This document shows, piece by piece, positions 1 to 31,554 of a stretch of DNA of 31,554 bases. The stretch lies in the UHGV virus genome UHGV-0071094; one strand, given 5' to 3'. Numbering within the stretch: position 1 is the first letter of the stretch; each line of letters starts with the position of its first letter. Both the position numbers and the translations under genes were made by a program. The stretch comes from a virus. Below the pieces are notes generated by a model, which was not told the DNA's origin, searched no databases, and saw only the letters and a program-made list of their open reading frames with translations.

Positions 1-95
1 CCCAAAGAATGTGATGAATGTACTCAGAAGTCTTCCTGTGCTGGTTATTTCAGTTCATCAAAAGGCCGTTTTCATCAACCACCGAGACCAATTTT

Positions 96-731
96 ATGAA
101 AAAATTTAATTTCGCTGCTCTGCTTCCGGGATTTTTAGCACTCAATAATTCTGTATGGGCAAGTGATTCCTCCACTGGTGCAAGTGATTTGCCCGGTATG
201 ACTCTTAATGAGCATGATTTAGTTATAGCTCCACTTAACACGGAAGTACCTTTCTACATTGCAGGGCATCGTAGTCATAGCTCCCATCGAAGCCATAGTT
301 CTCATAGATCTTCGTCTGGTGGTGGGTACTATGGTGGAAGCACTCCTTATTATCCTAAAACATACAGTTCACCAAGCTCATCAGGCTCATCCACTTCAGG
401 TACAAATTCGCCATCGTCTTCTTCATCTGTTCGTTCGCTTCGCTCTAATGACGCCGATGCCTCTACGACCACAAACTCTGCTGGAATGAATGGAACTACT
501 CGTGCAAGTAGTGGGCTGGCTTCTGATACTGAAAAGCGTAAGCGTTTGATCATGCGAGTGCAGTTCGCATTACTGGATAAAGGGTTTTATAACGGCAATA
601 TAGACGGAAGTATGGGGCCTGCGACACGAACTGCTATCAAAAATTACAGAGTTGCATATGGGCTTCCTACTCCAGTAAGAGAAACATTAGATGCTCAGTT
701 ATTGAACTCTTTGAATATACTGGCTCGTTAA
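96..731 (+). CDS. Secreted protein with His/Ser-rich low-complexity region and C-terminal putative peptidoglycan-binding domain
   Basis: ORF 18..731; internal Met at 96 gives a signal-peptide-like N-terminus (MKKFNFAALLPGFLALNNSVWA); HRSHSS x3 and a Ser-rich linker; C-terminal ~60 aa (RVQFALLDKGFYNGNIDGSMGPATRTAIKNYRVAYGLPT) resembles the PG_binding_1 consensus. Start codon choice is inferred. Confidence 0.55.
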   Translation: MKKFNFAALLPGFLALNNSVWASDSSTGASDLPGMTLNEHDLVIAPLNTEVPFYIAGHRSHSSHRSHSSHRSSSGGGYYGGSTPYYPKTYSSPSSSGSSTSGTNSPSSSSSVRSLRSNDADASTTTNSAGMNGTTRASSGLASDTEKRKRLIMRVQFALLDKGFYNGNIDGSMGPATRTAIKNYRVAYGLPTPVRETLDAQLLNSLNILAR

Positions 732-749
732 AATATTAGGTAAAATAGA

Positions 750-2357
750 ATGAAGATAAAACTCTCTATTTATAAAACAAAAAGGTTTAGCGATGATATT
801 GATCAGGTTTTGAATTTGGAAAGGGTCAAAAGACCTGTTGAATTCGAGATGGAGGATGCACGAGCATATCTATATGTAAAGGAGTACATGGACCCAAAAC
901 CTCCTGAATGGACCACCTTTTTTATGGACCAAAATCCTGGCATAGAACCTGATTTCTTCGGTATGAATAGTAGCACAGGAGCAGTATTAGTTATTGAAGC
1001 TAACAATTCCAGATATCTTATTCCCTTTGGAACCGGTCATCACTTAATCAATGATGGCAGCATTGTCAAAGGATTTGGGCTTAAAACAACTCTTAATAGT
1101 ATAGAACATAAAAAAATTCGCAGTTTAGATAAAGGCAGTCACAACGAAACGAACCTGTTAACTCGCAGTCAGAGCAGTAAAGAAGTCGATATATACAACC
1201 TAAAAATAGATTCTGAGATGGATATTCTCACAACTCTCACAGGCACTTCGACAGAAGATATTTTAGGAAGTAAAATTACTGGCAAAGATGCTTTTGTGAT
1301 CATGCCGGATATTGAATTGAAGGCTATTCCAGCACTATTGACCAAAATAGACTCTATTTACTTATTACCTCTTCCTGAAGAATTCGAATGGGTTAACAAT
1401 ATCAAGGAGGCTGATGAACAAGAAGTTGAGATATTGGATTCGCTTTTGATTGATCGGATAAAGGAAAAAGACTTCAATGATTTATGGCTTGGAGAGCCAG
1501 AAATAGTAGACTGGGAAAATCAAATAGGCTATTGCTTTGATAAGAGACAAAGATTCATTCATGAAACCTTATCAATATACCATGTTTGTGATTATTTTGA
1601 TGGTAAGAAAACTGAAGTAACTGTTGATGAACTCAAAAAAAATTATCTGCATGTTTTGAATGCCGATTTTGAATCGATAAAAAAATGGTCTTTATATAGG
1701 TGCCTCTATGCCGAGATAAAAGAAGGTGATCAGAACTATATTCTTCGAGACTCTATATGGTATGTTGCAGATAGGAATTTTGTATCGACTATTGATGATG
1801 AAATGAAAAAAATAATTCATTATGAGGAGTCGGATAAATTCCCTGTATATTCATATAAACGAGAGGAGGATTATAATAAAAAACTTTGCCAAGATGATAA
1901 TTCCTTTACACACATGGATCAGAAATTCATTCATCATGGTGGTGGTAAAAGTAAGATTGAATTTTGTGATCTTATCAGAGGTCAATCAGATTTTATCCAT
2001 GTAAAATATTATACTGGTTCGCAAAGTATGAGCCATCTTTTTTCACAAGGATTTATAGGTTCTGAACTTTTTATAAGTGACTCTGAATTTCGAGGCAAAC
2101 TTAATGAGAAACTACCTGCTCATATAAAATTAGCCGATCACATAAATAGACCAGATGCTAAAAAATATAAACTAGTTTTCGCCATAGCTTCTAATAAAAA
2201 TCTTCCCGAAGATTTACCTTTGTTTTCTAAAGTAAACTTGAAAAATTTCCACAAGAGTATTACCAATTTTGGGTATGAGGTCAGGATCTGCAAAATTGCT
2301 GTGGACCCAGATATTTATAAAAAGAAGCTATGTAAACCACAAAAGAACAAGCTTTAA
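750..2357 (+). CDS. Hypothetical 535-aa protein of unknown function; possible nuclease-like C-terminal region
   Basis: Long uninterrupted AT-rich ORF starting 19 bp after the stop of the upstream gene (operon-like). No canonical NTPase motif seen. C-terminal segment IEFCDL...SDFIHVKYY loosely resembles a PD-(D/E)xK-type pattern (weak inference). Confidence 0.5.
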   Translation: MKIKLSIYKTKRFSDDIDQVLNLERVKRPVEFEMEDARAYLYVKEYMDPKPPEWTTFFMDQNPGIEPDFFGMNSSTGAVLVIEANNSRYLIPFGTGHHLINDGSIVKGFGLKTTLNSIEHKKIRSLDKGSHNETNLLTRSQSSKEVDIYNLKIDSEMDILTTLTGTSTEDILGSKITGKDAFVIMPDIELKAIPALLTKIDSIYLLPLPEEFEWVNNIKEADEQEVEILDSLLIDRIKEKDFNDLWLGEPEIVDWENQIGYCFDKRQRFIHETLSIYHVCDYFDGKKTEVTVDELKKNYLHVLNADFESIKKWSLYRCLYAEIKEGDQNYILRDSIWYVADRNFVSTIDDEMKKIIHYEESDKFPVYSYKREEDYNKKLCQDDNSFTHMDQKFIHHGGGKSKIEFCDLIRGQSDFIHVKYYTGSQSMSHLFSQGFIGSELFISDSEFRGKLNEKLPAHIKLADHINRPDAKKYKLVFAIASNKNLPEDLPLFSKVNLKNFHKSITNFGYEVRICKIAVDPDIYKKKLCKPQKNKL

Positions 2358-2517
2358 ATAAATTTTTCAATGCCAGAGACGTTTGCCAGTTCATGCAGAA
2401 AATCGCTTTTGTAAGTTACAGTCCATGTATCTTGGTTTAGAACAAAGTGGTGTCAAAAAAGGTTTATGCCTTGGGAGGGAATAAGGGGCTGGGAAATTTA
2501 ACCCCTTATAGAGTTGT

Positions 2518-2738
2518 TATGCCGCAATAGCTTTAAATTTTTGAGCAATGACATAATCACTCCACCACTGCATGAGAACCATTCGTTCTGCGAGATACTC
2601 GGCACGATTATAGGCTGCAATTATTTAATCTTTCTTCGAGTGGGCAAGGGCCGCTTCTAAGACACCAGTCCTGAACTTACCAGATTCCTCTGTCGCTGTT
2701 CTCGCAATAGATCTCATTCTGTTAACCATAAGTTCACC
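2518..2738 (-). pseudogene. Remnant of a tyrosine integrase 3' end (last ~65 codons, internal TAA)
   Basis: Minus-strand translation gives ...SGKFRTGVLEAALAHSKKD*IIAAYNRAEYLAERMVLMQWWSDYVIAQKFKAIAA*, matching the C-terminal motif of P4-type integrases (compare int at 12083..13345). About 85% identical over ~170 bp to 6490..6660. Confidence 0.55.
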
Positions 2739-2856
2739 TCCTTAAACCGTTCGAATAATTACGGCTTATACTGCCTACTTATGCTAATATCTAAGAGAAG
2801 CCATTGTGGTTGTGTAAGTATACTTCTTGGTTTATTTCGACTATAGAAAACCATAC

Positions 2857-3753
2857 CTATGACTGGCTGTTTTCAGCAAGAGTCTTATCATCTAAAGAAT
2901 TTATTTTCGAAATTCTTTTTAACTCATTAAGATAATCAACCTCGTTTTCCAAGAACCAATGAAGAACTTTAGAGTTACCAAGTAATTTATTAATATATGA
3001 CTGTATTATAACGAATTTCAACATATCTGAGCCATACTCGGTTTGAAGCTTTTTTGTTTCTTCCGAAGTTGTTGCCATTTCTTGTTCCAGACGAAGTATG
3101 GTTTTTTTTATGTCCTTTTTATAGGGAGTGTTTTTCCCTTTATTTACTATCATTGATGCCGGTGTTGCATCCAAGATGCTCATTGCAAATTTTTTACTAT
3201 AATTATCAAAATTAATCATTGTACCGACTGCTTCAATTTGACGAATTGGTTTCATTTTCCTCAAAACATCAAATGTAGCCTTAGGTATAGGTTTATCAGA
3301 AAGTTTCGCAATCACACTTGGATCTATACCGTTCATTACATTAGCTTTATCTTTTATGGCATCAACAGATATGCCCAAAGCAGCACTAAGTTTTTCAATT
3401 GATACTTTTGCCAGAGACTTAATTATCATTCTATGTTCTTCAACTACATTTATATGATTCACTTGTTTGTTAGGAGTGAACGCATCATCTATGCTCGAAA
3501 GTATACATGGAGCTTTTTCTATGCCTAAATCTTTTAAAGCCTCAACCCGCAAATGGCCATCGAGTATCTTAATGGCATCTTTATCTTTGTCATAGAACAC
3601 TATTATTGGTTCAATAATACCTAAGCTTTCAATTGAGGTAACTATCTGATGATATTTATGACTTAGCTTTACATTTTCTAACAATTCCTTAGAGGGAATT
3701 AACTTGTTAGTTTCTAAATAAATAAAATTGTCGCCAAAACGTATCTGAATCAT
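2857..3753 (-). CDS. ParB/Srx-superfamily (ParB N-terminal domain-like) protein
   Basis: 298-aa ORF with ILDGHLRVEALKDLG motif typical of the ParB N-terminal nuclease-like domain; start overlaps the stop of the upstream gene by 4 nt. Confidence 0.6.
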   Translation of the reverse strand: MIQIRFGDNFIYLETNKLIPSKELLENVKLSHKYHQIVTSIESLGIIEPIIVFYDKDKDAIKILDGHLRVEALKDLGIEKAPCILSSIDDAFTPNKQVNHINVVEEHRMIIKSLAKVSIEKLSAALGISVDAIKDKANVMNGIDPSVIAKLSDKPIPKATFDVLRKMKPIRQIEAVGTMINFDNYSKKFAMSILDATPASMIVNKGKNTPYKKDIKKTILRLEQEMATTSEETKKLQTEYGSDMLKFVIIQSYINKLLGNSKVLHWFLENEVDYLNELKRISKINSLDDKTLAENSQS

Positions 3754-4646
3754 TTTGATGCCTCTTTGTTTATTGGATTGAGGATCTGAGATGGCAGTTC
3801 TGATAGATTCTCTTGTTCAAGTATATTTTGAAAGCTTTTATTCATCATTATGACGTTAAAAATCTCATTTACTATCAGCAAGTTAGTTTTAATAAATTTA
3901 GAGTTGTTATAAACAGATTTATGTTCAGCGATACTATTTTCATAAAGCTCAATTAACTCCTCAGCAGTCATTCTTTTTGATGGTTTGTGATAATAAAACC
4001 CGGCTGCTTTTGCACCTTTATTCCCAATTGTTCGCTGATTTAGAATGTGTTTTATCTTTATAATGTCCCGGCTTTTTATTAATTTTTTATCATATGCTTC
4101 GGTAAGAATATCTTGTGCTTCTTCAGTGTCACATCTTGCAAATTGTACTGCGAGATACAGAGGCAAATTCCCCCGTTCGACTGCAGAGAGAAGTTTATGC
4201 TCTCCCTTATCAAGAAGCATATTTATACTGCTCACCCAGTTCGATGAATACCCAGTAATCTCACTTATTTCGGAGTCTGAAAGTCCTCTGTTTTTCATAT
4301 CTTTTATTATCTGTAATAACTCATTGGAACGTGGTCTCCTCCTTGCAATGTTTTCAACCAAACTCATAACATAAGCATCTTCTTCTGATACATCTCTTAT
4401 AATTGCTGGAATAATGGTTTCACCTAATGCAACGAGCGCCTCTATTCTCCCTTGGCCACAAATTAAAGCATATTTGAAGTCGTCTTCATCAATCGCTCTT
4501 ACGCTTATAGGCTTGCTTAACCCTCTTTTTTTTATGCTTTCCTTAATTTCTTCATGCACTACCTTATTTCTAGTTCGCGGGTTAAGAAATTTTATTTTGG
4601 CAATTTCAATTTGGATTATTGGGAATTCATTTGATTCAGGCAGCAT
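3750..4646 (-). CDS. ParB/RepB-like protein (ParB N-terminal domain)
   Basis: 298-aa ORF; GQGRIEALVALG and VENIARRRPR motifs resemble ParB box regions; overlaps the upstream recombinase gene by 11 nt. Confidence 0.6.
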   Translation of the reverse strand: MLPESNEFPIIQIEIAKIKFLNPRTRNKVVHEEIKESIKKRGLSKPISVRAIDEDDFKYALICGQGRIEALVALGETIIPAIIRDVSEEDAYVMSLVENIARRRPRSNELLQIIKDMKNRGLSDSEISEITGYSSNWVSSINMLLDKGEHKLLSAVERGNLPLYLAVQFARCDTEEAQDILTEAYDKKLIKSRDIIKIKHILNQRTIGNKGAKAAGFYYHKPSKRMTAEELIELYENSIAEHKSVYNNSKFIKTNLLIVNEIFNVIMMNKSFQNILEQENLSELPSQILNPINKEASK

Positions 4647-6192
4647 ATAGTTCCCTCACTTTCATGCGAGTAATAATTTGTAGAAGTTTATCCAGATTAT
4701 CAAATCTATAGAGATCTAATCGAATGTTGTTTGTTTCCGTCATCCACATTTTACTATATTCGTTTTCAATCTTTGGTATGATATAAAAATCAAGTGGTGA
4801 AATATTTTGTGAATCCATTCGTATAACAATTGTTATGTCTGCTTTCTGTGAGTTATCAAACCGGACTTTCCATCTGAGTTTACCCGATTTCATATGTGTG
4901 CATTTAGTAATAAGGACGGAAATTAAAAACTCATCATTGATGTAAAGCATTGGTGCATATTTATATTCGTCTATATAGCAGTTGCTTTTTAAAATTTCCC
5001 CCTTAAAATCCTCAATTATGCCTGAGTAAAATGATCTTAGTGCTTCATTTATTTGGATATAGCTGTAATCATGTTCTGGCTTATAACCAATCAAAGTATA
5101 TGCTCTTAAAAGACCACCAAATCGGGTTCTGTAAACAGAAGATGAAGGGCCTGTATCATCTTCATCAATGATAAAGCCAGATAGTTTTCCATTAGATTCT
5201 AATTTTTGTTTTAGCTTTTCTAAAAGCTCTTCATTAGTCAAATGTACGGATCGGAGCTGAATTATTTCTTGAGCTTTATTATATTTTTTCTTTGAAATAA
5301 TGGGTTTATATGCCTTGTCGCATCTAACCCATTCATTTTTTGGGTTTTTTACAAGCCTACTTTTTAGTTTAGATGAGGTTTTGTTATATATGTTATTTCC
5401 AATATATTTTTCATTTGTCAAGATTTGATGTATTTTTGCACGAGTCCATAGTGTTCCATTTTCTGCAGGTATATTCTGTTCATTTAGTCTCTCAGCAATA
5501 ATGAATTCTGGCATGTTATCATCTATAAAGAGATCATAGATGCTATTTACAATTTTTATCTCATTTTTTGGTCCCGGAATTAATATCACCCTATCTGTTT
5601 GAATACTCTTTCTTTTGCGGAAGCCCAATATTTCTTTAGCTATGCCATTTTCATCTACTAAAAGACGTCTTAGCCCATAACCAGCCATTCCGCCTTGATG
5701 ATAACCAAGCTTTATTAAATTTGCTTGCCCTATAAATACCTTTTCTGATAAATTCCTGCTGTGATATGCAGCACTAGATCTTTTTATATTCAGTATAACA
5801 GAAGACTCTAAAGGGAAATCTTTAGTGGGAATAGGTTCGGAACAGTATATAAGATCTACACCGTTTCTCTCAAATAGAAAGGAATAATATGCAGCTTCAT
5901 CACTATTTTGAAAACGACCAAAACGGCTCACATCATAAAATAATACAGCCTGTATATCTATTTTCTTTTGTTCTACATCACTAAGTAACTGCTGCAAAGA
6001 ATGCCGGCCTATGATACTGACTCCGCTCTTACCTGCATCATCGTAGGTATAAGCGATTTCCATATTGTTCTTTTCAGCATAATCTTTGATATATTCGGAC
6101 TGATTATGTAAAGAATATTGCTGATGGTCGGTAGACATCCGCAAGTACTGTGCGACCCTAACTTTATGATTTTTATCATTTTCGCTAGCCAT
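4636..6192 (-). CDS. Large serine recombinase (resolvase N-terminal catalytic domain plus recombinase domain)
   Basis: 518-aa ORF; N-terminal VAQYLRMSTDHQ motif with catalytic Ser as in the resolvase/invertase domain; size and C-terminal extension typical of large serine recombinases. Confidence 0.8.
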   Translation of the reverse strand: MASENDKNHKVRVAQYLRMSTDHQQYSLHNQSEYIKDYAEKNNMEIAYTYDDAGKSGVSIIGRHSLQQLLSDVEQKKIDIQAVLFYDVSRFGRFQNSDEAAYYSFLFERNGVDLIYCSEPIPTKDFPLESSVILNIKRSSAAYHSRNLSEKVFIGQANLIKLGYHQGGMAGYGLRRLLVDENGIAKEILGFRKRKSIQTDRVILIPGPKNEIKIVNSIYDLFIDDNMPEFIIAERLNEQNIPAENGTLWTRAKIHQILTNEKYIGNNIYNKTSSKLKSRLVKNPKNEWVRCDKAYKPIISKKKYNKAQEIIQLRSVHLTNEELLEKLKQKLESNGKLSGFIIDEDDTGPSSSVYRTRFGGLLRAYTLIGYKPEHDYSYIQINEALRSFYSGIIEDFKGEILKSNCYIDEYKYAPMLYINDEFLISVLITKCTHMKSGKLRWKVRFDNSQKADITIVIRMDSQNISPLDFYIIPKIENEYSKMWMTETNNIRLDLYRFDNLDKLLQIITRMKVRELYAA

Positions 6193-6489
6193 GCACGAAA
6201 CCTCATGGATGATTCAATACAATGTAGATGATAAAATTGATCAATTTCTAACCAATTTCAACTGTTTTATCATTGATTAGAGCGAATTTAGTAAATCTTC
6301 GAGGTGTATGATAATCGAGAAGATATGTGAATTATGTAGCTGATATGACCAACAGCTTTCGGTATGTGGCCTCAAGTTACCCATCCGTAAATGGCTATGC
6401 TTAGTCAACATTTGTTAATATGTGTGATTATAATTCTTTAACTAAATCAAGATAGTTAACCCATCAGGGGAGAGTTATGCGGCAATAAC

Positions 6490-6955
6490 TTAGCATTTTT
6501 GAGACGCAACATAGTCACTCCACCATTGCATGAGAACCACCCGTTCTGTGGGATATTCTGCACGATTGTAGGCTGCAATTATTTCATCTTTCTTCGAGTG
6601 GGTAAGGGCGGCTTCGAAGACATCAGTCCTAAACTTTCCAGACTCATCAGCAGCATCGCATACCGTGAGCTACAAGCTTACCTCCGAACCCCATACGGAT
6701 TATGGCCGCATTAGCTGTTTGCTCATGCATATGGTTAAGAGGAGCCTTTATGCTTGGAAACACCCATTCACGATGCCCACTTATCACTTTCATTGACTCT
6801 AGGACTCGTAAAGCTTCTTTGCTTAGTGGAACTTTGTGAGGCTTCTTCATTTTCATAAACTCAGCCGGGATGTTCCACATACCAGTTTCTATATCAATAT
6901 CTGTCCATCTTGTGCGAACCGCTTCAGCGGGCGAACCCATGTTAGAAGTTGCCAC
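6490..6955 (-). pseudogene. Truncated, frameshifted tyrosine integrase (C-terminal catalytic half only)
   Basis: ORF 6647..6955 encodes an integrase catalytic-domain segment (WTDIDIETGMWNIPAEF...HREWVFPS...AHGMR). The C-terminal ...DESGKFRTDVFEAALTHSKKDEIIAAYNRAEYPTERVVLMQWWSDYVASQKC* continues in another frame (about 14-nt deletion relative to the copy at 2518..2738). The N-terminal ~220 codons are absent. Confidence 0.7.
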
Positions 6956-7377
6956 TCAATCAGTAGCCTTGTTTCTAACCGGATAGAAGCATTGTTTAGA
7001 GCAACTAGGAAGCGGGGGGATTACTGTTTCTGGTAAAGACTCTTTTGGTGGTGAACTGGACGCCTGGAATCAATATGAGAAAACTACTTAGTGCAACAGG
7101 AGCTGAATTAACTAATGGTGTAACATTACCTAGTGGTTGGCTTGTCAGTGGTATGAGCAAGGGAGCCAATAATCCTGAAAATTTAAGAGCGTTTGCTGTT
7201 TGTATGAGACAATGGCAGCATAAAAATTCTAGGATAAACTTTTGCCTTAATTAAAATGATAGGTGGTATATTTATAGGGGTTATCTTAGGAAGAATATTT
7301 TTAATGCTATTGATGAGAAGTATCGGACATGATTTAATGTTGTTTATGTTTTAGAATTCTCATATTCAGGCGGTTTC

Positions 7378-7743
7378 ATGATAAAACAGAAGTTAAAGAA
7401 TGACTGGGATATTCCTGCAATTCTTCGTCTTACTAAAGAACAAAAAAGGCTAAAATTGTCTGTTCAAGAAGTTGCAGACCTTCTGGACTTAAGCTCATAC
7501 TTTTTTGAGTTAGCTGTCGATGAGAAGGTGGATTTCAAATTTTATGACCTTCCTGAAAAGGTTAAAAAAAAGCTGCATTATGCAGGTTTTGATATTTTCT
7601 ATTTAATGACTGGTGAGTATTCAGGTAGTGAACCGGCATTGAAAATCGCCAGTTTTGAATATTCTATAAAGGATATGTCTCCTGAAGAAAAAAATGAAGT
7701 GAGAGTGTTGATAGAAAATATACCGATAACAAAACCACACTAA
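7378..7743 (+). CDS. Hypothetical 121-aa protein
   Basis: AT-rich ORF with no recognised domain; weak RBS; immediately upstream of a membrane protein gene. Confidence 0.4.
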   Translation: MIKQKLKNDWDIPAILRLTKEQKRLKLSVQEVADLLDLSSYFFELAVDEKVDFKFYDLPEKVKKKLHYAGFDIFYLMTGEYSGSEPALKIASFEYSIKDMSPEEKNEVRVLIENIPITKPH

Positions 7744-7812
7744 AATTACCTTTAATCCTATCATGTTATATTGGTAGGAAAAATTAGAACGTAATGATAT
7801 TGAGGTATAATC

Positions 7813-8436
7813 ATGGCCTTATCATCTGTAGCTATTGTGGCTGGTGTAGCTACTTTGGCAGCATCTCTTTTCAAAAATACAGAACTTCGGGTGATAGATA
7901 TCGTTGAGTTGTCAAAGCTCAGTGTTAACGATATTGAAAACAACCCTCAGTTAAAAATTGTCAAAAATGATATTAATGAACATATAACAGGCATTAAAGA
8001 CCCTGCATTTCATGAGGTTCTAATTGAAATTATGGCTAAGCATAATAAACCTGTTGGTTACTTCAAAAAAGTTGATGGTAGGTTGCAGTATGACCATTCC
8101 TATTATATTTCAATTAATAAGATGGGCTGGGGGCAATACATTAAAAAGTTAATTAATAATCCAAATGATTGGGTTGCAACTTTGATATATGTTATTTTTA
8201 TTATAACAATGTTCGGAATAGCAGTAGATCTTGATAAGGATCCACAAACATTTAATCAAGGTCTGTCTATATTTTTATCAGGTATGGGGGGATTAATGTT
8301 TAGCTTTTTATTAAAAGGCTTATCGGTTCAATGGAGAAATAGCTTTCATAATGTCAAGGATTTCGAATATAAAGAATTGTTTAAAGAGTACGCTAACAGT
8401 AAAATAGATGAAATCATATCATCAAACTCTAAATAA
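7813..8436 (+). CDS. Hypothetical membrane protein (207 aa)
   Basis: GAGG RBS 6-8 nt upstream; hydrophobic segments (ALSSVAIVAGVATLAASLF; WVATLIYVIFIITMFGIAV; LSIFLSGMGGLMFSFLL) suggest about 3 transmembrane helices. Confidence 0.5.
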   Translation: MALSSVAIVAGVATLAASLFKNTELRVIDIVELSKLSVNDIENNPQLKIVKNDINEHITGIKDPAFHEVLIEIMAKHNKPVGYFKKVDGRLQYDHSYYISINKMGWGQYIKKLINNPNDWVATLIYVIFIITMFGIAVDLDKDPQTFNQGLSIFLSGMGGLMFSFLLKGLSVQWRNSFHNVKDFEYKELFKEYANSKIDEIISSNSK

Positions 8437-8539
8437 TGATTCGGAATCATTTCTACCGTTGGCTGGGGTACATAAAAGCGTAATATTTTTATTCATTCTG
8501 ATAAAGCCAAGTCACATGGCTTGGCTTCAGATATATTGA

Positions 8540-8872
8540 TTAAGTATTATCTTTAATCGTTGTTGTTGTTCCGTTGGTTTTCACGGAAGCGATACCTTTT
8601 TCACGGGATTGTTTGGTCGAGTACATCTGGCTTGTACCGATCACATGATGATTAGCCGCCCGTAGGTTAAAATAGGACTTGCCGTTAGATGAGTCTTTCA
8701 GATCGTAGCGTTCATCAAGTGGGCTGTTTGCCTGAACTGATATAATGCCATTTTCTGCAGAACTCTTGGTTGTGTAAAGCTCGCTGGTGAGGATAATTTC
8801 TCCATTACCGGCTTTCAGAACAAATTTATACTGTTCATTACTGCTCTTATCCAATTCGAACCAACCAGCCAT
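8540..8872 (-). CDS. DUF1508 (YegP-like) tandem-repeat protein
   Basis: 110-aa ORF with two internal repeats (...YKFVLKAGNGEIILTSELYTTKSSAENGIISVQ / ...YFNLRAANHHVIGTSQMYSTKQSREKGIASVK) characteristic of the DUF1508/UPF0339 family. Confidence 0.65.
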   Translation of the reverse strand: MAGWFELDKSSNEQYKFVLKAGNGEIILTSELYTTKSSAENGIISVQANSPLDERYDLKDSSNGKSYFNLRAANHHVIGTSQMYSTKQSREKGIASVKTNGTTTTIKDNT

Positions 8873-9650
8873 ATTAACTCCTTGATAAAGTTGTGATTTT
8901 TACGGCCCAGTGATGAAGAACGAAGCGGGCAAGTTCAGTATGCCTGAAACAAAAATTGTTTCCAATATGTTATGTTTGTATCGGTAGCTGGGAACAAGAC
9001 TACACACTACGAAATGAGGCTTAGCTGTCGCCCACCAGTGTTGGCAGGTATGCCTTAGTGGGAGTCTTAGAGCGGAGGGTATCTTGAATCAATGTCTATT
9101 GCCATATTTACACGACACACGATATATTTTCTTTAGAGTCATATCTTAGGAAACAATAACGGCGACTTGAGCAAAAGTATCTAATATCAATAGATTTTCG
9201 TTAATTTAAAAAAATAGGTGCTCTCTCATAAAATCTGTAGGGTACTTGGTCGTGAATAAATTGCTGAGTTCATGTTGCGATGTCATTATTTGTCATCTTC
9301 CATGTCTCATAATTATCCTAACGTATAGGTTCAATGAAATTCCTTTATTCCTGTGTCTAATCTAATCAATCTAGCAATCTAACCAAACCTGTGTGTGGCG
9401 ATTTTACCTTGTTTAAATGTTCTAGGAATGCCTTTATCTTTTAGTATTAATTATATTAAAGGTTTACTTTCACGATGAGTATTTGCTGTTTCATCGGGAG
9501 GTTAAGATATTCATAATCTATCCTGACTGTAACGAAGATTAATCATTGATTTTATTTATATGTGAAAAAATCACTTTAAATATTGATTTTTTATGATTTA
9601 TGTAGTTTAATTTAAATGTATAGGTGATTTTTTCACATTGGAGAGGTGCT

Positions 9651-11009
9651 ATGTTAATCAGATTCTCAGTCGAAAACTACAAGTCATTCAGAGATAGAGT
9701 CGAGTTTTCAATGGTTTCGAGTAAAGTTCGAAGCCATCCATCACATGTCGTTAAGGCAACTTCTGCGAACGATATAAGTGTGTTAAAAGTTGGAGTTATC
9801 TATGGAGCTAATGCTTCTGGTAAATCCAACATCATCAAAGCAATGAAACATGCTCAAAATATGATTTTGAAAGGAAGTAAAGCTGGTACTAACCTTCCCT
9901 ATGCACCTTTCAGGCTTGATGATGATTTTGAAAAGAAACCCAGCAGATTTGAATTTGAAATTAAAATCAATGGCAAGAACTATGCATATGGATTCTCAGC
10001 TGATCAAAAATCCATTAAAGAAGAGTGGTTGTATGAAATAAACAAGAAGGATGACATTCTTATTTATGAAAGAAGTAATACAACTCACTTTAAATTTGAA
10101 AACATAAAATTTAAAAATGAAGAAGACGAACAATTCCTAAACTTTACAGCAAGAGGAACAAGCGAAAACTCTTTGTTTTTGTACGAATGTTTTGATAGGA
10201 ATGTTCTGAAGGATTTGAATTACATTGTACCAATTTCTGATGTTTTTAAATGGTTTAAAGCTAAGTTACAAATAGTTTTCCCGAATTCTAAATATAGAGA
10301 CCTAGATTTTGGATCTGCTTCTGATGAAAAAGAAGGAGAGCTTATAACTGATATTCTAAAAGATTTTGATACCGGTGTGTCAAAGTTAGTATTAAGAAAA
10401 GTTAGTTCATTTGATGATATAAAACTTCCTCCCAATTTCAAGGACCAGATCATAGAGGATCTTAAATCTAGTAAGGCTGTTGTAATTTCAGGGCCAAGAA
10501 ATAAACGATATAAAGTTGAACTGGGTGAAGATGGAGAAATAACGGTATTTCAATTGATGACGGCCCATAAAGATAAAAATGGTGATGATGTATATTTTGA
10601 ACTCAACCAGGAATCAGATGGTACACAAAGACTTTTTGATATTATACCTGGATTAGTCGAACTTATGTTGAAAGACAAAGTTTATATAATTGATGAAATT
10701 GATCGTAGTTTGCATCCAAAGATTACAAAAACATTTATGAAATTATTCTCTATGAAAACTGTCGGTAAAGACAGTCAACTGATAGTCACCACTCATGAAA
10801 CCGGTCTTTTAGATTTTGAACTTATACGAAGAGATGAGGTTTGGTTTACTGAAAAAAATAAAAGTGGAATTTCGAGAATTTATTCACTCGAAGAATTCCA
10901 GCCTAGGTTTGATAAAGATATACGTAAAGGTTACTTAGTGGGGCGTTTTGGTGGAATTCCTAAAATAAAGAATATATTATCAAACGTTGAAGATTTTCAG
11001 AAGGACTAA
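9651..11009 (+). CDS. ABC/SMC-like AAA ATPase (OLD/AbiLi-like ATPase component)
   Basis: Walker A GANASGKSN; Walker B-like VYIIDEIDRSLH; GGAGAGG RBS before the ATG at 9651 (ORF track start 9624 is less likely); stop 2 bp before the next gene. Confidence 0.7.
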   Translation: MLIRFSVENYKSFRDRVEFSMVSSKVRSHPSHVVKATSANDISVLKVGVIYGANASGKSNIIKAMKHAQNMILKGSKAGTNLPYAPFRLDDDFEKKPSRFEFEIKINGKNYAYGFSADQKSIKEEWLYEINKKDDILIYERSNTTHFKFENIKFKNEEDEQFLNFTARGTSENSLFLYECFDRNVLKDLNYIVPISDVFKWFKAKLQIVFPNSKYRDLDFGSASDEKEGELITDILKDFDTGVSKLVLRKVSSFDDIKLPPNFKDQIIEDLKSSKAVVISGPRNKRYKVELGEDGEITVFQLMTAHKDKNGDDVYFELNQESDGTQRLFDIIPGLVELMLKDKVYIIDEIDRSLHPKITKTFMKLFSMKTVGKDSQLIVTTHETGLLDFELIRRDEVWFTEKNKSGISRIYSLEEFQPRFDKDIRKGYLVGRFGGIPKIKNILSNVEDFQKD

Positions 11010-11011
11010 AA

Positions 11012-11668
11012 ATGCCTCGTGAAAGAAGAGAGTTTGACAGAAGAAGTGGGGTAAAAGACCCGTCTTTAATTGTAATTGCTTGTGAAGGAGAGAAAACAGA
11101 GCAGGACTATTTCAATAGTATATCGGAACTATGTGATGAGTTAGGATCACGTTTACAACTTAAAGTTCTCCCGCCGCGAGAAGAGGGGCATAGTGCGCCT
11201 AGACATGTTTTAGACCAAATGGATAAATATAAAAAAGAATTTGGAATTAAAGTGAATGATGAATTATGTCTGGTAATCGATAGGGATAAACAATCATGGA
11301 CAGAGGCTACTATAAGTGAAGTTGCTCAGTTTTGTCATGCCAAACAATATATTCTGGCTTTAAGTAATCCATGTTTTGAATTATGGCTTCTTATACACCA
11401 TTATGATGTAATGCTCCTCGGTGAGGATGAAAAAAGAAGTATTTTAAGAAATAAAAATGGGTATATGAAAAGCAAACTACGGGATGTTATTGGACAATAT
11501 AACCCAAGTTCTATTAATATTCATGATTTCTGGGGGGTAACTGAAATCGCGATTGACAGAGCTAAACGTTTAGATGTTAATCCAGCTGAGAGATGGCCTA
11601 ATGAAATAGGAAGTCGTGTGTATATAATCATGGAGAAAATACGTCAGTCAATTAATAATCAATTATAA
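11012..11668 (+). CDS. RloB-like / Toprim-domain protein (putative nuclease partner of the ATPase)
   Basis: 218-aa ORF; N-terminal IVIACEGEKTE and downstream LVIDRDKQ give a Toprim-like E...DxD signature; translationally coupled to the ATPase gene. Confidence 0.6.
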   Translation: MPRERREFDRRSGVKDPSLIVIACEGEKTEQDYFNSISELCDELGSRLQLKVLPPREEGHSAPRHVLDQMDKYKKEFGIKVNDELCLVIDRDKQSWTEATISEVAQFCHAKQYILALSNPCFELWLLIHHYDVMLLGEDEKRSILRNKNGYMKSKLRDVIGQYNPSSINIHDFWGVTEIAIDRAKRLDVNPAERWPNEIGSRVYIIMEKIRQSINNQL

Positions 11669-12082
11669 TTATCCTATGTATTCCTTCGCATTTATTCCAT
11701 GCTTTAATAAGTGTATAAGGTTTTAGCTAAGTTGATTTTTTTATTGACTTGGCTTTTTTGTGTCTGGTTTGATGGTCTAGTTATGAGTGTAGGTATTTTT
11801 CGATTAAAGCGTATATCTTGATTTTTATATTAAGAATCATTCCTGATTTCTACTGAAGCCAAGAGAAAATTATTAATATATTTCATAGGATGATTTTGAA
11901 TTAGGATCTAAACAATAAGATATGGTTCACGTAAATTTATTTTGCTGGAGTGATAACTCGATTGGGTGTTTATTGAGGGGGGGCAAAAATATTGGTTTGA
12001 CATTATTATTACTACCTTTTTTTGTTTCTTTGCTCAGTGTTTACGTTGCTTTTTAGCGTGCAAAAAATAGAGAACTATTATA

Positions 12083-13345
12083 CTAATTCATTTTCTTTAT
12101 TCTCTGGGCGAATTCAAACGGTGTAATGTGTTCTTTTCTGTTGGCATTAAGGTAGTCAGCCCACCATTGTAACATGAGTTTTCTCTCTTCGAGATGTTCC
12201 GCTTTGTGGATATATGCTGCCCGAACCGAGTTACGCTCTTGGTGGCTCATTTGACGTTCTACGGCGTCTCTTGACCATAACCCAGATTCGATTAATGCAC
12301 TACAAGCCATAGTTCGAAAACCGTGACCACAAACTTCAGCTTTCGTGTCGTAACCCATGGTGCGAAGAGCCTTGTTAACAGTGTTTTCGCTGATTGGTTT
12401 GTCATCGCGACTAAAACCAATGAACATAAGATCCTTTTCTCCACTTATAGCTTGGAGCCTTTTAAATAATACTACAGCCTGCTTACTTAGCGGCACAAGA
12501 TGAGGGGTTTTCATTTTTGAGCCCCTATTTGAATACTTAACCCCCTCCAATTCTCGTCTTTCTGCAGGGATTGTCCATAAGGAGTTTTTGAAATTCACCT
12601 CAGACCAACGAGCGAATCTAAGTTCACTTGAACGGATGAAAGTCAGTAGAGTTAATTGAACTGCTATTTGAGTGATACCTTTCCCTTTATAGGCATCAAT
12701 CCGTTTGAGAAGCTCAGGAAGTCGTTCGAGGGGAAGGGCAGGGCGGTGATTACTCTTGGCAGTGGTTACAGCGCCTGCGAGGTCGTAAGCTGGGTTTTGG
12801 TCAATCAAAGCATTGTGAACAGCATACCGCATGATGGCAGTGATTCTTTGTTGTAAACGGGCAGCAAGTTCAAGATGTCCAGTTTCCTCTGCTTTTTTCA
12901 GAGGAACAAGTAAATCACGAGTTTTAAGCTCACTAATGTTCCGCTTACCGATAACAGGAAATACATGAGTGATCAGGCTGTTTAATACGGTAGTTCTGTG
13001 ACTGTCTGACCAGGTTCTGTTGCTTGAGTGCCAGTCTCTGGCAACAGTTTCAAAAATGAGTAAGCCTTTCTCTTCAATCTTTTCTGTTTTTCGCTTTTCG
13101 CCAGGGTCAACATTGTTGGCAATGAGTTGCCTTGCTTCTTCTCTTCTACGACGAGCTTCTGCTAAAGACACTTCGGGATAAACACCAAGCGCCAACATTT
13201 TTTGCTTACCAGAAAAGCGATATTGAAGCCGCCAGTATTTTGAACCCGTAGGGTGAACCAGGAGATGCATACCATCCCCATCTGTTAACTTGACGGGCTT
13301 TTCAGTAGGTTTCGCATTTCTGACTTTTACCTCAGTTAGTGCCAT
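12083..13345 (-). CDS. P4/CP4-57-type tyrosine integrase (Arm-DNA-binding DUF4102 plus catalytic domain)
   Basis: 420-aa ORF; N-terminus MALTEVKVRNAKP...KLTDGDGMHLLV...GSKYWRLQYRF typical of the P4-like integrase arm-binding domain; C-terminal HGFRTMA...AAY...LMLQWWADYL catalytic motifs. Sits at the AT-rich/GC-normal boundary. Confidence 0.9.
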   Translation of the reverse strand: MALTEVKVRNAKPTEKPVKLTDGDGMHLLVHPTGSKYWRLQYRFSGKQKMLALGVYPEVSLAEARRRREEARQLIANNVDPGEKRKTEKIEEKGLLIFETVARDWHSSNRTWSDSHRTTVLNSLITHVFPVIGKRNISELKTRDLLVPLKKAEETGHLELAARLQQRITAIMRYAVHNALIDQNPAYDLAGAVTTAKSNHRPALPLERLPELLKRIDAYKGKGITQIAVQLTLLTFIRSSELRFARWSEVNFKNSLWTIPAERRELEGVKYSNRGSKMKTPHLVPLSKQAVVLFKRLQAISGEKDLMFIGFSRDDKPISENTVNKALRTMGYDTKAEVCGHGFRTMACSALIESGLWSRDAVERQMSHQERNSVRAAYIHKAEHLEERKLMLQWWADYLNANRKEHITPFEFAQRIKKMN

Positions 13346-13520
13346 TGTGACCTCCTGATGATGGTATCTGCATTATCGAACTTACAATACCAACAGTTAT
13401 ACCAACAAAACAAGCTGGATGTCCGTATATCCCAACAGTCCTTGGTAGACCATGGTTAAAGTGTACTTCATTGAAATGATTGGGAAAAATAGACTTTGAT
13501 ATACTTCGGTAGACAGGGTT

Positions 13521-13536
13521 CTGGCGTCCCCTGCAG
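13521..13536 (-). other. Candidate prophage attR core (tRNA 3'-end-like sequence)
   Basis: Minus strand reads CTGCAGGGGACgCCA, resembling the acceptor-stem 3' end plus CCA of tRNA-Arg (argW as I recall it: ...CCTGCAGGGGACACCA); located between the excisionase and the next integrase, where an attR is expected. Confidence 0.4.
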
Positions 13537-13609
13537 ACATCTACTTGAGGCAGCAGGGGATTGATTAGAATGGTATTTTTTAGATGTGAGAAATATTTTA
13601 CCCGCTATT

Positions 13610-13810
13610 TTACCCATTGGCGCGGCTTAAGAGCTTATTTTTGAATTCACAATGGTCACGATATAACCATCTTGCTCGCCCGTGGATAACTTTGGCTTTA
13701 GGCAGGTCTCCGGACTTAATCCGGTCATAGATGAAGGTTTTACCGAAGCCAGTATCGGCCATGATGAATTTCAAATCAACCAGGGAATCAGGCTGTAGTT
13801 CGTGTTGCAT
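13610..13810 (-). CDS. torI: AlpA/TorI-family excisionase (winged-helix recombination directionality factor)
   Basis: 66-aa ORF (MQHELQPDSLVDLKFIMADTGFGKTFIYDRIKSGDLPKAKVIHGRARWLYRDH...) with AlpA-like HTH; position at the prophage end opposite the intS-like integrase matches the KplE1 layout. Gene symbol by analogy, not verified. Confidence 0.75.
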   Translation of the reverse strand: MQHELQPDSLVDLKFIMADTGFGKTFIYDRIKSGDLPKAKVIHGRARWLYRDHCEFKNKLLSRANG

Positions 13811-13828
13811 GAGTGCTATCTCCGAATA

Positions 13829-13844
13829 GGGAATCGAACCTGCA
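13829..13844 (-). other. tRNA T-arm-like 16-mer (TTGCAGGTTCGATTCC) immediately upstream of the excisionase gene
   Basis: Minus-strand sequence matches the T-stem/T-loop (GGTTCGATTCC) region of a tRNA and diverges where the acceptor 3' strand would begin. Confidence 0.45.
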
Positions 13845-13852
13845 AATCAGGC

Positions 13853-13876
13853 AAGAAAAAACCGCCATCAGGCGGC
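13853..13876 (-). terminator. Rho-independent terminator-like hairpin with U-run (minus strand)
   Basis: GCCGCC-TGAT-GGCGG stem-loop followed by TTTTTTC on the minus strand, overlapping the stop of the small ORF upstream. Confidence 0.4.
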
Positions 13877-14035
13877 TTGGTGTTCTTTCAGTTCTTCAAT
13901 TCGAATATTGGTTATGTCTGCATGTGCTATCTGCGCCCATATCATCCAGTGGTCATAGCAGTCATTGATGTTCTCTGCTTCGATAACTCTGTTGAATGGT
14001 TCTCCATTCCATTCACCTGTGACTCGGAAGTACAT
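13868..14035 (-). CDS. Small hypothetical phage protein (55 aa)
   Basis: Minus-strand ORF MYFRVTGEWNGEPFNRVIEAENINDCYDHWMIWAQIAHADITNIRIEELKEHQAA preceded by a GGAGA RBS; below the ORF-track size cut-off; the overlapping plus-strand ORF 13802..14050 is judged spurious. Confidence 0.35.
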   Translation of the reverse strand: MYFRVTGEWNGEPFNRVIEAENINDCYDHWMIWAQIAHADITNIRIEELKEHQAA

Positions 14036-14222
14036 TTATCATCTCCATAAAACAAAACTCGCCGTAGCGAGTTCAGATAAAAGAAATCCCCGCGAATGCG
14101 AGGATTGTTAGTTGCGCTCTGCTGCTGCCTTAGCCATTACCATATCCACCAAACTTCACCAGACATGATTCTCGCAATCACTATCATCACCAAAGTGATA
14201 ATCACAACTTTAACTGGCGGCA

Positions 14223-14951
14223 TCATTCACCATCCTGCTGCGGTGCTGCTGGCAGTGGCATCCAGTGGGTAATACTACCTGGATATAAACTCTTTGCTGG
14301 CCCCCAGTAGCCATCTGTATTAACACGCATAACCTCACAGCCATCAAAACCATCAGTTACAAGAACGTATTCATAAGGTTCCGGCATCCTTTCGCTTACC
14401 GGAATCCAACTATCCGGAGTTCCCGGAGAGTTGCCATTTACATCGAAGTTTGGCTCTGCGTCCTGAACCAGGAGGATGTAACCATTCTTGGCTGTATCAA
14501 GTTCTAACGCCTCGGTGACGGTGCCGAAATAGCGATTGCCTAAATCAGCATCACAAGTGCTTACATCAATGGAAACTTCCATGCCCTCGATTAATTCTGG
14601 CAAGTTGTAAGTTTGGCTTACAGGTTCGGCTTCCAGTTCTGCTATGCGCTTTTTTGCTGCTTCCAGCTCGCCAAGCAGCGCCAAGACGGTAGCCGGATTG
14701 GCTGCGGCGATGAATTCAGCATTGGCCTGCTGTTCCATTTGGAAATCTTCATCGAAACCGCTTTCAGGATGCGCTCCTTCAATTCTGCAAATGGGAATAT
14801 ATCCAGCAGCCTCGCGATGAATTAGCGCATCATCACAATCAAATCGGCTCTCTCCATATTCGAGCGACCACTCACCACACGTTGCTTTTTCTGCCGCTTC
14901 ACGCAGTGCCTGGTAATTAATTTCGCTCACTGTTTGCCTCCTTTGCGCCAC
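14223..14951 (-). CDS. Ead/Ea22-like protein with C-terminal DUF551 domain
   Basis: 242-aa ORF; C-terminal ...[35 protein letters not shown]...THWMPLP resembles DUF551; typical lambdoid early-left accessory gene. Confidence 0.7.
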
Positions 14952-15550
14952 ATCGCATTCAGATATTTGTTGTCATTAACAGAACCGAAACTCTTTCTTT
15001 TAAGCAATTCCTCTCTCGATGGCATTGGCTTTACGCGTTGGCGAATAATCATTTCTGCCGGAAGAATGCCGGGATTGTATGCAAGTCCTCTCATGGTAAA
15101 TTCCTCAGTCATTACTGATAGCGCCATAGCGTGAGCGGTAATTACGCAGGCGCGGGTCAATTTCAGGGAAGTGGGTATATCTGCATCTTTCGCATCATCA
15201 ATGCCGAACAAACCATTGAGGCAATACTTGCGTGCATAAGAGCTTGTAGCTCCAGTAACTTGTGCAGAATCCATTCCTTTCTTGCTTTCTTCCTCTCGTG
15301 CAAGAGCGGTTGCCGTATGACTGTTTTCGCCATCGGTAATAGTTGCCGTGGCTTTCACATAATACCGATCACCAATCAACACAACTTCATCGCTGATTGA
15401 TAAAAACAGGCCATTCAGTAGCGGCTTAACGCCTTCAAGAATATCTTCGCAGCTTCTGTATTTATATTTACCGAATGAGTTGTACTGATTTTTTGGCGCG
15501 TTCAGATTCTCCTGAATGGCAGCCAGTCTTGCGTAAAATTCTTTGCTCAT
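14927..15550 (-). CDS. erf: ERF-family single-strand annealing protein (P22 Erf-like)
   Basis: Translation from the internal Met ([45 protein letters not shown]...) closely resembles phage P22 Erf as I recall it; the ORF-track start 15580 probably over-extends. Confidence 0.8.
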
Positions 15551-15651
15551 ATGATTGTTCTCAGAATGGACATGGCCCAAGGAAATAACGCTGATTTAAT
15601 ACTTCGACTCGGGACAAGTTAAGGCATACCCGCATTCCTTCGCGGTCACCA

Positions 15652-15810
15652 TTATGGCGATACCAGAGAGCTTTCTGCGTGTACATGCGTCTCTGTAACT
15701 TGCTCTCCTTCACTGTGGTTGCAAGTGACATGAATATCTCCTTCGTTACCGATTAATTCTTTCATCTGACGAATGAATTCTTCGTCTGACCAGTTATCTG
15801 TAAAACTCAT
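15652..15810 (-). CDS. Small phage protein (52 aa) in the Arf/early-left position
   Basis: Minus-strand ORF MSFTDNWSDEEFIRQMKELIGNEGDIHVTCNHSEGEQVTETHVHAESSLVSP; its ATG overlaps the stop of the upstream small gene (ATGA). Confidence 0.4.
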   Translation of the reverse strand: MSFTDNWSDEEFIRQMKELIGNEGDIHVTCNHSEGEQVTETHVHAESSLVSP

Positions 15811-15959
15811 TTCCTGCGATACCATGGAAGGTTGATAGCTAATTTCATCTCTTTATTTGCTTCAAGCCACATTTTGGAATCACCAATAAATCTGGCTATT
15901 ACTGCTTTGTTTTGTGCTGCTCGAAGCATCTGGTGATTGATGGCTATTTCATTGCGCAT
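15807..15959 (-). CDS. Kil-like small protein (50 aa)
   Basis: Minus-strand ORF MRNEIAINHQMLRAAQNKAVIARFIGDSKMWLEANKEMKLAINLPWYRRK; the ...RFIGDSKMW... segment resembles lambdoid Kil as recalled; assignment tentative. Confidence 0.35.
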   Translation of the reverse strand: MRNEIAINHQMLRAAQNKAVIARFIGDSKMWLEANKEMKLAINLPWYRRK

Positions 15960-16078
15960 AACGCCTCCAGTTGTTTCTTTGCTGCTCTGATTAATTGTTT
16001 AACTCGGCGTGATAATTCAGATTCGTGCGGGTAGAAAGCGGACATGACGCCGCTACCCGCGAGCTGAAAGTGCATCAT
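15944..16078 (-). CDS. cIII-like small protein (44 aa)
   Basis: Internal start of ORF 15944..16183 gives MMHFQLAGSGVMSAFYPHESELSRRVKQLIRAAKKQLEALCAMK, resembling lambda CIII (..AG....ESxL.R....L); AAGGAG RBS upstream. Confidence 0.4.
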   Translation of the reverse strand: MMHFQLAGSGVMSAFYPHESELSRRVKQLIRAAKKQLEALCAMK

Positions 16079-16619
16079 GGGTAACTCCTTATATTTGATT
16101 GCATAACGAAAACGCCTCGAGTGAAGCGTTATTGGTATGCGGTAAAGCCGATGGAAGAATGGTTTCTTCTCGCAGGTAAGCATGATGCTTGCTGTTCTGG
16201 AATACGGAATCGAAGACGATGAAATGGCTGAATTGACTAAGCGGCTTGCCGATTACCTGACAAAAGAAAAAGCCCCGAAGAACGGCGAATTCTTCGAGGC
16301 CTGATGTAGAAAGACTGGATCAATCCACAGGAGTAATTATGACAAAACGTCGTAAGAAATACCAGGAAAAAGAAGAGATTCGACACCCTGATTCACCTGA
16401 GGGATTAGTGGTAGCCGCAGCAAATAACAGGGCGTTCGCAGAGCGCCTTGTTGGTGTTTACAGACTAGCCAAAGCAGGAGTGAAACATGGGCGTCGTTAA
16501 GTTAGCTGATTACAGGCATATCCAAACCGTATGCCTGTTGGTAGTGGTAACCAGTTGGCGAAGTGGAACGGTTGGAATTACTTCCACCGAAAGGAACCTT
16601 GCGATAACGGGAGCGAATA

Positions 16620-18038
16620 ATGCCGATTCAGCAACTTCCGCTTATGAAAGGTGTCGGCAAAGACTTTCGAAACGCCGACTATATCGACTATCTGCCAGTG
16701 AATATGTTGGCTACACCCAAAGAAATACTCAACAGCAGCGGATATCTTCGTTCATTCCCGGGCATTGCCAAACGCTCTGATGTGAACGGTGCATCTCGCG
16801 GCGTCGAGTACAACATGGCGCAGAATGCTGTTTATCGTGTGTGTGGTGGCAAGCTGTACAAAGGAGAAAGTGAAGTCGGTGACGTTGCCGGAAGTGGTCG
16901 TGTATCAATGGCGCATGGTCGGACATCACAGGCAGTAGGCGTTAATGGTCAACTGGTCGAGTATCGCTATGATGGCACGGTTAAAACCGTCTCAAACTGG
17001 CCTACAGACAGCGGATTCACGCAGTATGAGTTAGGTTCAGTCCGCGACATTACGCGCTTACGTGGGCGTTATGCGTGGTCAAAAGACGGCACTGATTCAT
17101 GGTTTATCACTGACCTTGAAGACGAATCGCATCCTGACCGCTACAGCGCACAATATCGTGCTGAGTCTCAGCCTGACGGCATCATCGGCATCGGAACATG
17201 GCGAGACTTCATCGTCTGCTTTGGTTCATCGACGATTGAATATTTCTCCCTGACTGGCGCAACAACTGTTGGTGCTGCTTTGTATGTCGCACAGCCATCA
17301 CTGATGGTGCAGAAAGGCATTGCCGGAACTTACTGCAAAACGCCATTCGCTGATTCGTATGCGTTTATCAGCAATCCGGCAACGGGTGCGCCGTCTGTAT
17401 ACATCATCGGATCCGGTCAGGTGTCACCAATCGCCAGCGCGAGCATTGAGAAAATTCTCCGCTCCTACACTGCTGATGAACTGGCTGATGGTGTGATGGA
17501 GTCTCTGCGATTTGATGCGCATGAGCTGCTGATTATCCATCTTCCGCGCCATGTTCTGGTGTACGACGCATCTTCAAGCGCCAATGGTCCGCAATGGTGT
17601 GTACTGAAAACAGGCCTGTATGACGATGTGTATCGCGCTATCGACTTCATTTACGAAGGCAATCAGATAACGTGCGGCGATAAGCTGGAATCCGTGACCG
17701 GGAAATTGCAATTCGATATCAGCAGCCAGTACGACAAGCAACAGGAACATCTGCTGTTTACTCCACTCTTCAAAGCAGATAACGCCAGAGTTTTCGACCT
17801 TGAGGTTGAATCGTCAACTGGCGTTGCGCAGTACGCTGACCGCCTGTTCCTCTCTGCAACCACTGACGGCATCAATTACGGGCGTGAGCAGATGATTGAG
17901 CAGAATGAACCGTTCGTTTACGACAAACGCGTTTTGTGGAAGAAAGTAGGGCGCATCAGGAAAAACATTGGCTTCAAATTGCGCGTTATCACTAAGTCAC
18001 CTGTCACTCTGTCTGGCTGCCAGATAAGGATTGAGTAA
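16620..18038 (+). CDS. P22 gp10-like tail/head-completion protein
   Basis: 472-aa ORF; same length as P22 gp10 and N-terminus [46 protein letters not shown] closely resembles it. Confidence 0.85.
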
Positions 18039-31504: not shown

Positions 31505-31554
31505 GGGTAAAAATCCGGTGGGTAAAATTATTTTATCCACTTTTTACCCGTCAT

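Follow-up and report, generated by a model that had tools for sequence, protein, structure and literature searches.

Two short stretches that resemble the 3' end of a tRNA lie on the minus strand on either side of an excisionase gene in the window (the whole stretch of 31,554 nt that was analysed). The question raised by this locus is whether they are the separated halves of one tRNA gene and, if not, what each of them is. A sequence-only reading had taken them for the 3' half of a tRNA-Arg-like gene interrupted by the excisionase gene, with the downstream piece as a prophage attachment core (attR) and the upstream piece as an older att relic, a part of the excisionase promoter or an arm-site region. 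Both pieces are indeed found on the minus strand around the gene, the upstream one as an exact copy of TTGCAGGTTCGATTCC and the core one mismatch away from argW. The span given for them (13521-13844) locates both, although its right end falls one base short of the full 16-mer (13845). The explanation that we favour as a whole, with somewhat more confidence than doubt, is that this is the end of an IntS/TorI prophage with a hybrid att core, and that the upstream piece holds a short T-loop box that would act as a DNA site.

Read along the minus strand, the locus consists of a 55-aa phage ORF (14035-13868), an intrinsic terminator 3' of this ORF and upstream of the box (13859-13878), the T-loop piece TTGCAGGTTCGATTCC (13845-13830), the Shine-Dalgarno GGAG of torI (13820-13823), the torI-type excisionase (RDF) gene (13610-13810), a 73-bp spacer that forms the P arm, the att core (13536-13522) and the gene of a 420-aa integrase. 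The torI gene reads towards the core, and its 66-aa product is 100% identical to TorI, to HkaC of HK620 and to gp18 of Sf6. From 13900 to 13522 the window is ~98% identical to the attP region of Sf6 and HK620, and from the 55-aa ORF to just beyond the terminator (13900-13842) it is 95% identical to the lambda sequence immediately upstream of xis. Two GGGTAAAATA repeats just past the torI stop codon (13594-13615, minus strand) can be likened, by resemblance only, to IntS arm-type sites, TAAA being the conserved motif of the P' arm-type sites of IntS (PMC2951348).

The argW sequence (...GGGCTAATTGCAGGTTCGATTCCTGCAGGGGACACCA) was taken from chromosome L005, which matches the region at 98.6%. On this basis the upstream piece covers tRNA positions 47-62 and the downstream piece positions 62-76, with one base shared between them. 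The downstream piece, CTGCAGGGGACgCCA on the minus strand, agrees with argW at 14 of 15 positions, the only change being A73G; chance alone would give 0.01 matches for CTGCAGGGGACGCCA (13522-13536), which differs from the argW 3' end at one base. The 16-bp CTGCAGGGGACACCAT is the published core of the KplE1 module (PMC2951348), and the literature describes it as duplicated in KplE1, HK620, Sf6 and Kapi1, the experimental core being the 16/17-bp 3' end. The window shares 14 of these 16 bases, and the two differences are A73G and a final T changed to G. We identify the downstream piece as this known att core of KplE1/HK620/Sf6-type prophages. Its proposed role as an attR core holds up well, as identity with the Sf6/HK620 attP ends exactly at 13522, the last base of the core, and as K-12 carries the annotated fragment pawZ at its KplE1 attR.

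The other end of the prophage carries an intS-type integrase gene (30347-31504, minus strand) in the orientation of argW. It is adjoined by a P' arm (31505-31554) that makes up the last 50 bases of the window and is identical to the arm beside argW in the genome of GPEC349. Because the window terminates inside this arm, which follows argW, the tRNA gene itself lies outside it, ~110-190 bp past its end. This agrees with the earlier expectation that the cognate tRNA and attL would be found just past the right end of the window, beside the intS-like gene. By these features, we take the region for the right-hand end of a P22-like prophage that is defective and uses the argW-specific IntS/TorI module of the KplE1-HK620-Sf6 type. 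Excision in such modules is carried out by IntS, TorI and IHF (PMC2951348; PMC3509656), which here would recombine the core at 13522-13536 with the identical 3' core of argW and so release the prophage.

The prophage is incomplete. Its Erf gene (14927-15580) is almost directly followed by the head-closure gene gp10 (16620-18038), and the interval between them (15580-16620) marks the deletion junction. The tail needle, DNA-transfer, tailspike, gtr and int genes are kept, and the immunity (cII) region and the genes for replication, lysis, terminase, portal and coat/head proteins are missing.

What follows the core is neither prophage DNA nor dsdC-side chromosome; it is the DNA of an island. The 420-aa integrase encoded there (12083-13345, minus strand) is of the P4 type and belongs to this second argW-specific island rather than to the prophage. 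The island occupies window positions 1-13521, next to the prophage. It also encodes an AbiLi/AbiLii-like defence pair (9624-11009 and 11012-11668) and, on the minus strand, two ORFs of 298 aa and one of 518 aa (2857-6192), which match the two ParB genes and the recombinase gene of GPEC349 in size and in their order.

In GPEC349 the order is yfdC-argW-intS-prophage-torI-core-int420-island, and the two junctions of its prophage differ at tRNA position 73. The attL core (...GACACCAT) has A73, whereas the junction on the torI side (...GACGCCAG) has G73 as in the window, which places the strand exchange left of tRNA position 73, within CTGCAGGGGAC. In 19 complete E. coli genomes, argW with G73 is fused directly to the island arm. 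Both core changes (A73G and the last T to G) can thus be ascribed to the arm of the island, which would have integrated at the common core and supplied A73G and the following G. We consequently read the core as a hybrid junction at which the attR of the prophage is fused to the attL of the second argW-specific island. The idea of a simple attR is amended in this respect: the core is that of attR, but it is not followed by bacterial DNA. The tandem layout of torI, core and P4-type integrase also occurs in several other genera.

The P arm has tRNA-like features of its own. A degenerate T-loop (TTCGATGT / AGTAGATGT) lies immediately left of the core in the attP-type P arm, and the TTCGATGT element is retained at this place in many attP P arms. 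Since the P arms possess their own T-loop-like half-site, the module comprises two separate T-loop-like elements and not one split tRNA end. An 8-bp inverted repeat (TCCCCTGC ... GCAGGGGA, 13527-13560, minus strand) has its right arm within the att core. Its left arm varies along with the host tRNA, the pairs being CCCCTACA/TGTAGGGG in Rouxiella and TCCCTGCA/TGCAGGGA in Edwardsiella. This co-variation suggests that the symmetry of the repeat is under selection, possibly as a pair of core-type sites or as a hairpin.

The proposal of a single tRNA 3' half split by the excisionase gene does not survive these comparisons, given the half-site in the P arm and given that related modules retain only the loop part of the upstream piece (G53-C62), not the argW T-stem. 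No tRNA gene was detected in the window by ARAGORN, and the full 30-mer is absent even at 3 mismatches. A search of positions 13200-14200 against Rfam 15 (E up to 10) returned a best score of 24.9 bits against a threshold of 66. Directly upstream of the piece lie the terminator and the phage ORF, and no tRNA 5' half. We do not regard the upstream piece as half of an interrupted tRNA.

The upstream piece matches tRNA-Arg(CCU) of argW at 16 of 16 bases. It occurs once in the window, and no second match was found there at up to two mismatches. The part that is conserved across genera is GTTCGATTCC(C) (13839-13829), that is, an 11-nt T-loop box (GTTCGATTCCC), which corresponds to tRNA positions 53-62 with an additional C, contains the pentamer GTTCG and stands 6 nt before the Shine-Dalgarno site of torI. 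The left end of the 16-mer overlaps another element, TTGC-CTGAT-TTGC (TTGC-N5-TTGC; 13842-13854, minus strand), which the HK620 annotation describes as the site where cII protein binds to an integration promoter. The second TTGC of this element is formed by the first four bases of TTGCAGGTTCGATTCC, so the 16/16 match to argW would be in part a coincidence or would mark a microhomology junction.

Two coding explanations of the box were tried and rejected. An N-terminal extension of torI through the box meets an in-frame TGA with no later start codon in E. coli, and the third codon positions are invariant. For an origin from a duplicated 5' coding region of torI, local alignment gave a marginal match (p=0.014) with the E. 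coli type, whereas 11 other lineages showed none. The repeats GCCTGATT..GGTT and GATTCCCT, which occur both in the leader (13837-13852) and in torI codons 6-12 (13778-13793), are in view of this marginal, E. coli-only similarity taken as chance or local resemblances.

To place the box in the wider family, we compared TorI homologues sampled by protein similarity only (seven phage records from six distinct phages, and 36 Enterobacterales genomes). With one mismatch allowed, GTTCGATTCC was present at most 60 nt upstream of the start codon in 20 of 42 assessable TorI loci, where ~0.06 would be expected, and the distance from box to ATG ranged from 17 to 33 nt. Elsewhere in the sampled loci, the motif was no more frequent than expected by chance, apart from its occurrence in a true tRNA and the inverted copies in Yersinia. 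The box is found in both deep TorI clades, whose proteins are <45% identical and whose four-fold-site identity is ~0.37; these four-fold-site figures come from box-selected sequences, and the count of 20/42 is the only unbiased one. An alignment of 14 leaders showed GTTCGATTCC(C), the nearly invariant GGAG and the ATG as the only constant elements. The T-stem bases left of the box vary (TTGCAGG, CCACAGG, CTCCAAG, GGCTAGG, CCCTG and others), and the sequences farther upstream are unrelated. A scan of IMG/VR for the combination of box, Shine-Dalgarno site and ATG yielded 80 loci, of which 51 were TorI genes and 22 were true tRNA genes; among the remaining 7, several are visibly tRNA 3' ends. All TorI-type loci with a readable core have a tRNA-Arg-type 3' end, and no box-bearing locus has a different T-loop. 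It appears that this family-wide conservation is not mentioned in the literature on the module that we examined.

The box is by no means universal, being missing from about half of the TorI homologues; it is also not found upstream of an AlpA-type gene that is more distant, in Pseudomonas phage F116. At two loci, of Dryocola (L020) and Enterobacter (L039), the terminator and TTATTGCCTGGAGG run directly into the start codon (~2460-2500), and the natural box-less form reads TTGCCTGGAGG. Both look as though a clean deletion had removed ~24 nt between a pair of CTGG repeats, unless the box was inserted in the other loci. Erwinia phage Midgardsormr38 has two tandem copies of the box. In three Yersinia loci (L035, L036 and L038), two tandem GGTTCGATTTCC copies lie on the opposite strand within the last codons of the TorI-like gene (~2655-2690 in L035, ~100 bp before the core), and no box is present upstream of the gene. 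Separately, a remnant N-terminus of another excisionase-type HTH gene (...SLTLDEACQFLKIS; a weak HTH_17 match, E=0.19) was observed upstream of the box in K-12 (ypdJ; L169, 1095-1235), in phage Emek and in L040; in Emek (L010, 1901-2014) the remnant amounts to an ORF of 37 aa, which continues across the box.

Our best explanation of these patterns treats the box as a leader element that many Enterobacterales have in front of excisionase genes of the TorI family. It would most likely descend from, or mimic, the bacterial (tRNA) side of attB, and we infer that it would act as a DNA site for the recombination proteins of the module itself and thereby tune torI expression. Candidate binders would be TorI, through the GTTCG pentamer, and/or the core-binding part of IntS. 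The ten conserved bases are exactly those that abut the crossover region in attB, and the feature common to all the modules is their target tRNA, from which a common core-type specificity of the integrase follows. The tandem copies in Midgardsormr38 and the inverted copies inside the Yersinia xis gene also fit a protein-binding site on DNA. A more specific form of this explanation, which we put forward tentatively, is that of a putative operator: the box would be a copy of the attB tRNA half, kept throughout the Enterobacterales and bound by the core-binding domain of the integrase and/or by the excisionase so as to set the level of the latter, and the GTTCG sites themselves would derive from the tRNA T-loop.

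Several observations limit the role that such a site can have. The box holds one GTTCG with no adjoining second TorI-type site in the window, and TorI sites usually come in blocks of two or three. In the phiEt88/Enterobacter clade, the P'-arm repeats at the TorI-site positions read GTAACC/ATTACC instead of GTTCG (and the arm-type repeats read GGGCATAA rather than GGGTAAAA); as the box is unchanged in this clade, TorI binding cannot explain its conservation everywhere. The absence of the box from about half of the family, together with the two apparent clean deletions, indicates that it is dispensable and that any role would be modulatory. The attR substrate used in vitro spans 135 bp and begins at the torI 3' end (primer CTCTTAAGCCGCGCCAATGG, window 13633-13614; PMC3509656); since excision proceeds on it without the box, the reaction does not require the upstream piece. 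As a counterpoint to the operator, a scan for sigma-70 promoters from the terminator to torI on the minus strand found no -10/-35 pair that the box could control. With regard to the functions named by the earlier reading, an arm-site region is unlikely, as the published IntS arm-type sites carry TAAA and the box has none, while an old att relic and a promoter are still live rivals.

The first of these rivals, a relic that an old att event left behind and that has since been inherited without a function, seems to us rather unlikely as an account of the box. Such a relic could have arisen if the argW T-loop and the torI cassette were brought together by illegitimate recombination or by recombination at a secondary site, or if the cassette landed within a longer ancestral core. 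The full 16/16 identity with argW and the fact that the two pieces abut by one base would be natural outcomes, and the left junction at a TTGC common to the lambdoid block and the tRNA is the kind of microhomology typical of illegitimate joins. The incomplete distribution of the box, the known box-less variants and its dispensability for excision in vitro also suit a relic. However, the loop part has remained constant among TorI proteins <45% identical, with four-fold sites near saturation, while the T-stem and the upstream sequence have diverged. The predicted intermediate, in which the argW 5' part would run through the T-loop into torI, was found in 0 of 5426 complete E. coli genomes, and the T-loop-like half-site in the attP P arm again argues against one tRNA end having been split.

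An improbable alternative is that the T-loop bases belong to a cII-dependent 'pI' promoter, in which cII would bind TTGC-N5-TTGC (13854-13842) and the T-loop bases would serve as spacer and -10 element. A transcript would then start at about the torI Shine-Dalgarno site and, like that of lambda pI, would supply Int but not Xis while lysogeny is being established. The annotation of related phages speaks for this promoter, HK620 having an integration promoter and a cII protein_bind feature (TTGCCTGATTTGC), and Sf6 a 'pI', exactly at this place. Lambda likewise has the same terminator block followed, just before xis, by TTGCGTGTAATTGC, which we take to be the cII site of lambda pI. The cII sites of lambda are, however, of the form TTGC-N6-TTGC, one base wider than the N5 spacing seen here, and the scan mentioned above detected no sigma-70-like element pair. 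The TTGC repeats are absent from the loci of Midgardsormr38, Emek, phiEt88 and Edwardsiella, in which the box is still conserved. The int gene of KplE1-type modules has its own promoter at attL, and the transcription of int and of the RDF gene is described as uncoupled. By its position, such a promoter could plausibly exist in the E. coli type; in the prophage remnant analysed here it would be irrelevant, since the immunity region with cII has been lost.

It is very improbable that the box acts at the RNA level, as a T-arm mimic in the torI leader that would be recognised by tRNA-processing or tRNA-modifying enzymes or would mask the Shine-Dalgarno site. Its identity with a tRNA T-loop, its distance of 6 nt from that site and the potential of UUCC to pair with GGAG speak for such a role, but a consensus fold of the 14 leaders (RNAalifold) contained zero conserved pairs, the T-stem partner has been lost, the Rfam search returned no match, and the Yersinia inverted copies sit inside coding sequence. 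We give next to no credence to the 16-mer as a working att core at which the prophage ends: the CUS-3 record (CP000711; L003/L004) does give TTGCAGGTTCGATTCC the two labels 'attL core' and 'attR core' and terminates at it, yet recombination there would leave torI behind and truncate argW, and the experimental core is the 16/17-bp 3' end. In E. coli K1 strain S88 (L006), the end of the prophage matches the final 409 bases of CUS-3 at 100% and is followed immediately by torI and the true core CTGCAGGGGACACCAT, from which it follows that the CUS-3 record is ~300 bp short.

The att core and the module are textbook features of this phage group, and our findings thus mainly confirm ordinary prophage anatomy. 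They nonetheless have some practical consequences. The 16-bp T-loop repeat can be mistaken for an att core, as in the CUS-3 record in GenBank, and the ends of prophages can be mis-set as a result. Tandem occupation of argW gives rise to hybrid att sites and, in some strains, to an altered discriminator base of the tRNA (G73). A short tRNA-like box is kept before a whole excisionase family, and if it were an operator it would provide a simple link between target recognition and the direction of excision.

Compared with the module of KplE1 (CPS-53), HK620 and Sf6, the window has an identical TorI, a P arm that is ~98% identical, the same 16-bp core, the same T-loop piece upstream of torI, and the intS-type integrase with its P' arm at the other end of the prophage. 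It differs from them in the A73G change of the core, where the attL arm of an island follows in place of the P' arm of the phage itself or of DNA from the dsdC side, and in the loss of the central part of the prophage, from after Erf to before gp10. The comparison with the K-12 KplE1 attR that the sequence-only reading had suggested reveals the same arrangement of the pieces and torI. There, pawZ, an argW 3'-fragment pseudogene, consists of the 15 bases CTGCAGGGGACACCA at an equal distance past torI, and it differs from the core of the window at one base (G73 in the window). The 16-mer TTGCAGGTTCGATTCC is likewise present in K-12, Sf6 and HK620, and K-12 has no annotation for it.

Mutational work on TorI binding concerned the sites GTTCG, GATCG and GTCCG, and the attL sites I1-I5 are arranged in blocks of two and three (PMC2951348). 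The box shares GTTCG with these sites, and its GGTTCGA is closely like the GGTTCGC of I4. It is unlike them in its location on the opposite arm at 290 bp from the core, in occurring as a single copy and in its extension as ATTCCC, which the attL sites lack. As for lambda, the terminator block is common to both up to the first TTGC, after which lambda has its own TTGC-N6-TTGC before xis. Lambda pI and the box region both follow a homologous ORF-terminator block, precede an excisionase gene and carry TTGC repeats; they differ in the spacing of the repeats (6 in lambda and 5 here), in the family of the excisionase, and in that no promoter was detected by the scan of the box region. The recombination module and the existence of both pieces were thus already known from these systems, and the conservation of the box among TorI-family leaders is the modest new detail that our comparison adds to them.
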